A stretch of 64,000 nucleotides of DNA from Podarcis vaucheri (taxonomy: Eukaryota), in the NCBI GenBank assembly GCA_965113315.1, contig OZ220375.1; one strand, written 5' to 3'. The notes under the pieces were generated by a model. That model had not been told where the DNA came from. It worked only from the letters and a program-made list of their open reading frames with translations, and ran no database searches. Made by a program: the position numbers and the translations under genes. This document shows positions 14,863 through 16,329 of the stretch, piece by piece (position 1 is the first letter of the stretch; each line of letters starts with the position of its first letter).

Positions 14863-15598
14863 GCCTGTCTCCAGGCTAAACACACCCAACTCCCTCAACC
14901 ATTTTCCCTAAGGCTTGGCCTCAAGACTCTTGATCATCTTGGTAGGCCTCTGTGCACATTCCAGCCTGTCAATATCCTTCTTAAATTATGGCACCCAGAA
15001 TTGGACACAGTACTCTAGGTGTGGTCTGACCAAGGCAGAACAGAGTGGCGCTGTTACTTCCCTTGATCTGGACATTATACTTCTGTTGATGAAGCCTAGA
15101 ATAGCATTAGCTTTTTTTTTGCTGCTGCATCACACTGTTGTCTGATGTTCAGCTTATGGTCTACTACAGTGGTGTCAAAACTTTTTTCAAAGAGGGCCAG
15201 ATTTGATGAAGTGAAGGGCCGTGAGGGCCGACCAAATTGCTGACCTTTTTTCAGGACTGAAGTTGTTGAGTTTTTTGTTTTTTTAAAGGATTTTACCCCA
15301 GGAAAAAAACAACTGCCACAGGGGCCGGATTAAACCAACCAGCAGGCCAGATTAGGCCCCCCCAAACGGACTTTGGACATGCCTGGTCTAGCTTCATAAA
15401 TCACAGATTTGGCAGCTGAATTTCCAGGAAAAAATTGTCATGTGTTTCAAGAGATATGGGTGCATTCAAACAATGGGCGAGGGGGAAATCTTTGCATGTG
15501 GCAAGTGTCCAATGGGAATGCGTAAGTGTGATGAGTGTTTATGATTATGGGATGGCCATGCCTGCTTTTTCTATGGAAAATAAGCGTCTGCCTCTCAC

Positions 15599-15671
15599 CC
15601 CTGTCGAACTTCTTGCCCTCGGGGTCGATGTCCTTCACATCAAAGATATCCTCAAAGAGGATGCCGGCCAT
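15599..15671 (-). pseudogene. POLR2H: Captured first coding exon of POLR2H (RPB8/RPABC3): [24 protein letters not shown] + phase-1 donor
   Basis: 24 aa match the vertebrate RPB8 N-terminus as I recall it; Kozak gccATGG; donor G|GTGAG; no further POLR2H exons in the window. Confidence 0.93.
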
Positions 15672-15960
15672 GGCAACGCGGGAGGAGCAGCTGCAACTGG
15701 GGGCTCCCGACCTGATATAGCCACGCGCACGCTCGCAGAGAGCATGGAGCGCCGCTTTCCTCCCTTCGCTTCCGGCACGGGCGCCTGGCGATGACGTCAA
15801 CAGTCTGAGGCTCAGGCGGACATGCTGGAACAGGGCAGAGGGGTGGCGGGGAAAGGGTGGCCGCGACTGGAAGGAGGAAGAGGGCGAGAATAGCGGGGAG
15901 GGGAGGCGGGGCATCCCTCAGCTGCGCACGCACACAAGTCTGCTTTGAAGCCCGAAAGAG
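15672..15960 (-). promoter_or_regulatory. Captured CpG-rich POLR2H 5'UTR/promoter
   Basis: ETS site CTTCCGG 15769-15775, full CRE TGACGTCA 15792-15799, GC boxes (GGCGGGG), NRF1-like TGCGCACGCA 15923-15932; CpG-rich amid AT-rich intron. Confidence 0.72.
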
Positions 15961-16329
15961 GGCAAAAAAGACCCCGACCTTTAAACCTGCAATAAAGGGA
16001 GGGGGCGGGGCAGGAGGAATAAATATATATTTGTGTGTGTAGACTCTGGCTTGTAGGCTGCCGCGCATGTGCTGAAAAGGCAGCTTTCTTGTGTCAAAAA
16101 AAAGAAAGCGAGAATAAAAGGTGAAGGCTGGCGGCCAGCGGCGGCTACACGGGCCACACGACGAGGTCTGGCGGGCCGGATTCGGCCCGCGGGCCTTGTG
16201 TTTGACACCCGTGGTCTACTAAGACCCTCTAGATCCTTTTCATATGTACTACAGGCAACCCCAAGTCAAAGTAGTAGGTTGTCATTACTTTCTCCTAATC
16301 AGCCAGGATCTAGAGTAACACAGTTTTTA

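Follow-up and report, generated by a model that had tools for sequence, protein, structure and literature searches.

A Buster-type hAT composite in a lizard genome carries the 5' end of POLR2H and a junction that reads as a hairpin footprint

Results

The composite and its copies

The DNA analysed here is a 64,000-nucleotide stretch of Podarcis vaucheri contig OZ220375.1 (assembly GCA_965113315.1), referred to below as the window. An ankyrin-repeat gene that we take to be INVS occupies 812-38063 on the minus strand, with exons at about 38.0, 30.7, 14.0, 13.2, 12.6, 11.7, 7.4, 2.4 and 1.2 kb; a CpG island lies at 44-46 kb, and Tc1-type transposase open reading frames (ORFs; PF01498, PF13358) occur in host-gene introns at 31882-32739 and 41784-42545. 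At 15167-16213, inside one of the introns, is a mobile hAT composite of the Buster type, now 1,047 bp long and hosted by a repeat that is presumably a CR1-like fragment.

On the plus strand, the composite is flanked by the 8-bp target site duplication (TSD) GTCTACTA at 15159-15166 and 16214-16221. Its outer left end is the terminal inverted repeat (TIR) CAGTGGTGTCAAAAC, which starts at 15167 and opens a complete 219-bp hAT miniature inverted-repeat transposable element (MITE; 15167-15385). This MITE belongs to an abundant family (best 40 of 2235 candidates scored), which we call old. Its own right TIR, TTTGGACATGCCTG (15372-15385), was bypassed and is followed by GTCTAGCT (15386-15393), the right TSD copy of the MITE brought from the parent locus. 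The right border is an orphan 170-bp end (16044-16213, TIR at 16201-16213) of a second, younger hAT family, differing from the family consensus at 6 of 170 positions; this distal end, TTTGACACCCGTG, stops at 16213, and its own left end is absent. A sequence-only reading of the window had described both arrangements, the complete MITE whose right end runs into GTCTAGCT and the matching TSD beyond a distal right end lacking a left partner, and we confirm its coordinates and sequences.

Between these ends lies POLR2H sequence on the minus strand. It comprises an intron-2 fragment (15386-15577; 96% identical to parent positions 8636915-8637106), the 5' end of intron 1 with its GT donor intact (GTGAGAGG; 15578-15598), the first coding exon (15599-15671; 73 nt encoding 24 residues, with a protein identical to that of the parent), and the 5' UTR with a GC-rich promoter region (15672-16043; parent to 8639287). 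The first-exon product aligns to PF03870 positions 1-18 at an E value of 0.0034, which is below the curated cut-off. A TGGA microhomology (15574-15577, plus strand) marks an internal deletion of 1,708 bp, in which coding exon 2 was lost and which is common to both copies of the composite.

The second full copy (G000:C41:4761133-4762173) is 97.5% identical, carries its own TSD, CTGTACCG, and has both junctions as in the window copy. Its site is within the pol gene of an LTR retrotransposon, with the RNase H part on one side and the integrase part on the other, on a repeat-rich contig (L034:4244-7154). Searching the genome with the composite returned two full-length copies and a split match on C19 (best 40 of 2795 candidates scored), and a search with the cargo alone returned just the two copies and the parent (4/4 candidates). 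Copy differs from copy at 12 of 859 positions and from the parent at 58 of 859, the latter accumulated over two lineages. A CR1-like relative (L078, the one such locus found) spans the empty site, with one GTCTACTA and a gap of 0. The second copy with its own TSD, the empty site and the origin of the two ends in separate multicopy families together argue that the composite is not a chance arrangement. Its features are those of Pack-TYPE elements, with host DNA of identifiable parentage enclosed between TIRs and a TSD, and with renewed movement as a unit (two copies).

Relative to the host gene, the captured promoter and exon are in sense orientation inside the intron. If the exon were spliced to the next exon of the host, the join would be out of frame, with a stop after 36 codons, and the POLR2H cargo is therefore most likely a passenger. 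Across the captured exon (15600-15671), all six differences among the parent and the two copies are synonymous, and the ATG and donor are intact; neutrality of the exon has a p value of 0.0002-0.003 if all six changes arose in the copies, although the parent lineage could account for some.

The POLR2H parent locus

The parent gene lies on the minus strand of C19, where exons 2 and 3 match PF03870 positions 19-45 and 47-72. The parental MITE (C19:8636654-8636914) is flanked on both sides by GTCTAGCT (8636646-53 and 8636915-22), as had been predicted from the window. Its position had been given as about 210 bp into intron 1; the intron in question is in fact the one that separates coding exons 2 and 3, and the MITE lies 325 bp into it. 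Parent positions 8637107-8638814 (1,708 bp) are missing from the composite, which is joined there at TGGA, and this deletion hides the true position of the MITE. The captured span was originally about 2.6 kb and shrank afterwards, with some 1.7 kb lost.

The parent match ends at window position 16043, corresponding to C19:8639287, and the distal junction thus lies 372-375 bp upstream of the ATG. This falls within the 300-550 bp at which the sequence-only reading had expected a second hAT element upstream of the promoter, but the element itself is missing: no copy of the young family was detected in the parent region of this assembly (C19:8.57-8.80 Mb, 230 kb, including further upstream), and single contigs from runs X4, X7 and X8, which bear three other species labels (four runs compared), contain no insert at the junction site. 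Contigs of relatives reach only 24-30 letters into the intronic MITE, below the threshold for bridging it. In runs X3 and X4, contigs break at the junctions, a weak hint of the composite.

Two end families of different age

Old-family copies differ from their consensus by a mean of 6.9% (28 top matches, a selection that biases the value low) and young copies by a mean of 3.2% (28 copies), while the young ends of the two composite copies stand at 6/170 and 4/170 from the young consensus. Taken with the copy-to-parent and copy-to-copy divergences, these values fit a capture during the young burst and a last jump much later.

Young-family TSDs follow the pattern nnnTAnnn, with T at position 4 and A at position 5 in 156 of 162 cases (81 TSDs, both strands). 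TSDs were matched for 81 of 89 sampled young ends at the first pass and for four more with longer flanks. The TIRs are short, imperfect and start CA(G), as judged from end consensuses of 24-32 copies each. One copy of 1,388 bp, bounded by young ends and TSD CCATAGAC, encodes the N-terminus of a Spin-doc zinc-finger transposase (PF18658, E value 2e-9). This fragment reads away from the "right" end, indicating that the distal end of the composite is the 5' end of the young element. None of 17 pattern matches contained a full-length transposase. In these respects the family resembles Buster-group hAT MITEs of the SPIN/Charlie type, for which the accessible text of PMC3517528 gives an 8-bp TSD consensus of nnnTAnnn; in a comparison made without a repeat library, no named Buster-group family matched.

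The left ends of the two families have near-identical TIRs and share GGGCC at 28-32. The old right end, in contrast to the young one, has CA at TIR positions 5-6 and lacks the young GGCCC at 19-23. Ends of hAT elements are asymmetric and require subterminal repeats, according to the available part of a recent study (bioRxiv 10.1101/2022.09.16.508221), and all long elements retain at least 66 bp of the young end. Such differences in end sequence may explain why the old inner end was bypassed. We also asked whether the old end became functional through a C11A change in the left TIR. Exact matches to this variant are few (5 versus 354, three of the five being the parent and the copies); we rejected this idea, as families Y and Z, described below, use GTGCCCAAA ends and the Y parent has an ordinary GTCCAAA. 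Two other old-family copies (L088, L089) share the C11A left end. Just inside the position of the POLR2H junction, short young-family copies such as L013 carry CCGCTAGAGGGCAG and GCGCATGCGC, which look to us like CTCF and NRF1 sites; of these, the composite retains GCGCATGCGC alone, with a single change.

A hairpin-type scar at the distal junction

At the distal junction of the POLR2H composite (hereafter family X), the parent reads GTGTAGA/G and the composite GTGTAGA/CTCTGG. The scar, GTGTAGA-C-TCT (16037-16047, plus strand), consists of seven bases of the parental 8-mer GTGTAGAG (C19:8639281-8639288), the complement of the eighth base and then a palindromic arm. Direct microhomology between parent and element at this junction is 0 nt. 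The arm, however, doubles as a 4-nt microhomology, CTCT also being the young element's own sequence there. On the TSD matrix of the young family, GTGTAGAG ranks in the top 0.15-0.26% of sites, and the composite agrees for 4 nt with the predicted hairpin read-through, CTCTACAC. Random junction pairs satisfy both conditions, target score and read-through, at a frequency of 5.6e-6, a figure that is post hoc for family X. As described in the accessible part of PMC5873905, hAT (Ac/Ds) excision leaves palindromes centred on the complement of the element-adjacent base, often joined by microhomology, and the X junction reads as such a hairpin footprint.

Recurrence in other captured families

Since the scar had been seen post hoc, we sought its recurrence in other families, sampling 89 of the first 100 exact young ends listed (307 in all), namely the first 30 consecutively and 59 of the next 70. 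Twelve of the 89 carry cargo between matching TSDs and start with a left end of the old family; eight of these keep the inner TIR. Common cargo-free elements with the same two right ends had been named by the sequence-only reading as favouring gap-repair capture; none of the 12 old-left elements is cargo-free. Within the first 30 loci, five are of the old-left type and 15 exceed 600 bp; on this count, about half of the young ends belong to elements that are long and GC-rich. Apparent cases of a missing left end proved to be longer elements (four) or elements with a TSD shifted by 1 nt (two).

In all four families traced to a parent (4/4), the same rule holds: the parental 8-mer fits nnnTAnnn, its last base is replaced by the complement and 2-8 palindromic bases follow. 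As read from the sequence, the scars of X, Z, cluster 2 and Y measure 4, 2, 4 and 8 nt.

Family Z has eight copies with the junction among 11 loci. Its parent is an SNF2-family gene, presumably HELLS/LSH, a factor for transposon methylation; this locus (L226/L232, C19:95.745-95.761 Mb) now has its 5' end in at least eight hAT copies. An old MITE with TSD CCTTAAGA is present in cis, 14.4 kb from the junction, at which the parent reads CTCTAGA/G (8-mer CTCTAGAG) and the copies CCCTAGA/CT. Three Z copies (L191-L193) leave the family sequence near position 1063 and enter a long GC-rich palindrome.

Cluster 2 has young ends on both sides, and its junction reads ATGTAAA/CTTT or CTTC in 24 of 25 loci. 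A G at the eighth position was written down as a prediction before the parent was read, and the parent does read ATGTAAA/G (8-mer ATGTAAAG); the blind part of this test is the eighth base alone (1 in 4), as the cluster was chosen for its junction. No Pfam match was found for the parent gene among 21 of its 94 ORFs.

Family Y, with 27 of 30 loci fetched (best 40 of 113 candidates scored), derives from a polycystin-family gene that we take to be PKD2, with an old MITE in cis flanked by TSDs. An undeleted Y precursor (L200) reads CTCTAGT-G-ACTAGAG against CTCTAGT/C in the parent (8-mer CTCTAGTC), an 8-nt read-through. This scar, GACTAGAG, is a perfect palindrome with 7-bp arms in which five bases are templated by neither side; in the other three families (X, Z and cluster 2), the element also provides a template for the palindromic bases. 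Most Y copies lack the scar, which a later deletion at GGCTG would explain. Exactly at the Y capture junction, a 234-bp hAT MITE of a third family with TSD CTCTAGTC is found (L210, C28:16.5638-16.5636 Mb), and the Y cut may therefore not have been at a young element.

At none of the four parents was the young insertion itself observed. It is absent from 110 kb at the Z parent, from 100 kb at the cluster 2 parent and from about 1.4 kb downstream at the Y parent, read by eye. None of the 89 sampled ends is an orphan young end still in place. Among 18 clusters of long elements (51 elements), 14 of which are untraced, just three have a scar directly at the junction; the null rate is 0.6% per position. 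Mirror-image scars at the left junctions of young-left elements gave no clear signal in 23 junctions.

Several further features of the young sample are recorded here. In loci L093-L182, which yield the 18 clusters, 49 of 81 TSD-matched copies exceed 600 bp, and the interiors of the long elements have a GC content of at least 0.55 in 39 of 49 cases (median 0.64). One element contains a protein-kinase exon fragment (L168, PF00069), and another looks transposase-derived (L112). L123, L142, L128 and their relatives contain tandem arrays with units of about 90-110 bp and variable copy number. In two elements (L115, L129), both ends, left and right, are of the young family, the flanks do not match and no TSD occurs within 9.7 kb; these elements are possible recombinants or hybrids.

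Discussion

Gene capture by DNA transposons is still argued from models, among them gap filling, template switching and end acquisition. We consider it likely that the window element is a non-autonomous Buster-type hAT Pack element that combines the left end of an old MITE in POLR2H intron 2 with what is probably a young hAT right end, and that the inner end of the young element was probably cut and misrepaired. The sequence-only reading had proposed a composite formed in cis by skipping the inner right TIR. The MITE in cis and the hairpin-type footprint at a strong target site support that proposal; the missing end of the distal element, for its part, was likely cut by transposase rather than simply skipped.

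The route would start from the old MITE that is present in the parent with TSD GTCTAGCT. To judge from the scar, a young element would then have inserted at GTGTAGAG, 375 bp upstream of the ATG and in the same orientation as the old MITE. Transposase may have cut the inner end of this element and left a hairpin on the promoter side. Microhomology would have joined the opened end of this hairpin, CTCT, to a point about 150 bp inside a typical short copy, leaving a lone end, either through one-ended excision or through an abortive gap repair templated by the sister chromatid. The lone end and the left end of the old MITE would together have moved about 2.6 kb, bypassing the old right end, an outcome visible in the copies although its chemistry is deduced. 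These last two steps are possible in either order. The TGGA-microhomology deletion evident in both copies then reduced the composite to 1,047 bp, and it moved at least once more as a unit.

The alternative that survives best is capture in trans, in which a hAT transposase cut at the target site (at whatever element was there), repair guided by 2-4 nt of microhomology switched template to an unlinked copy of the young family (as in gap filling or FoSTeST) and the unit then moved. We judge it unlikely. Room for it is left by the young element, which is gone from all four parents and from three related runs, by the lack of orphan young ends in the sample (0/89) and by the third-family MITE that occupies the Y site. 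However, a hairpin scar requires a hAT end at the site, and the X, Z and cluster 2 sites hold no other element. The simplest donor would be the cut element itself, with the sister chromatid as template; invasion of an ectopic copy on 2-4 nt is probably less likely, and the young end is invariably oriented to pair with the left end. On the left, the composite is contiguous with the parent through the MITE and its TSD, unlike FoSTeST or gap-filling products, which would have a template-switch junction on both sides.

Much harder to sustain is macrotransposition of two intact neighbours followed by an ordinary, transposase-independent deletion of the young inner end, with the target-like site and the palindrome being coincidental. 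Deletions at microhomologies do occur frequently in these elements, with examples at TGGA in X and GGCTG in Y and one of 14.4 kb in Z, and AGA is shared near the X junction, where a switch and a 4-nt loss could yield identical letters. Yet such a history predicts neither the complement base in 4/4 families nor the 8-nt palindrome in L200, the precursor that speaks most directly against it. Both this account and cutting of the inner end require a young insertion in cis and differ solely in how the end was lost. In Ac/Ds macrotransposition, the outer ends of two linked direct elements move the intervening DNA and both inner ends are kept, unlike in family X, where the young inner end is missing in both copies. 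Nor did we find support for a segmental duplication or an assembly artefact that happens to be bordered by MITE ends; such an origin is refuted by the two contigs with different perfect 8-bp TSDs, by copies that are 12/859 apart and by the empty CR1-like site that removal of one TSD restores.

Cutting and misrepair of the inner end, the reading we favour, has its closest known counterpart in plants. In the hybrid model for Pack-CACTA elements (Catoni et al., PMC6379663), as set out in the accessible text, neighbouring direct elements undergo aberrant excision that removes an inner end and yields a hybrid with genic DNA. The POLR2H composite is likewise a hybrid carrying genic DNA between two elements (see also the available part of the review PMC13317346) and would appear to work by the same route, here in a vertebrate hAT, with ends from different families of different age and with a hairpin scar at a traceable target site that would record the cut. 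The Pack-CACTA route entails complementary loss of both inner ends; here, both X copies and 8 of the 12 old-left elements sampled still have the old inner end. Of the two direct neighbours expected at the parent, the left is present, whereas the right is absent and only deduced from the scar. The junctions also resemble Ac/Ds footprints in their complement-centred palindromes and microhomology joins, as far as the accessible part of PMC5873905 describes them, but the hairpin-derived end is joined inside the element rather than to the other flank, creating a new mobile unit.

Among animals, Tan et al. (PMC8277862) report, in the portion available to us, four multicopy Pack-TIR cases in 100 reference genomes, one of them a frog hAT carrying a 5' UTR, and explain them by template switching. 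They sought only parents not associated with TIR elements and state that linked cases may be missed. The elements described here are similar in being TIR-bounded and multicopy with distinct TSDs and GC-rich 5' gene cargo; they depart from that definition, as the available text gives it, in that the left element is in the parent in three of the four traced families (X, Y and Z). A literature search confined to main texts and largely to open journals turned up no account of hairpin scars at the junctions of captured DNA or of comparable lizard elements, a result on which the supplementary lists of Tan et al. may bear.

One genome thus holds at least four traced multicopy families with identified parents and a junction rule predicted by transposase cleavage alone. 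The rule provides a countable test of the capture route, applicable to any hAT-rich genome. A younger family can make use of old intronic MITEs as ends, and the promoters and first exons of POLR2H and of SNF2-family and polycystin-family genes have been copied around the genome. On balance we lean towards a prolific Pack-hAT system in this genome. A young Buster/SPIN-type element would land in CpG-island promoters and lose the inner end by aberrant excision, then recruit a left end, old or young, from a distance of up to about 15 kb and so spread the 5' ends of genes genome-wide. Some of the copies may supply host genes with promoters, and the hairpin scars would make the capture route readable family by family.
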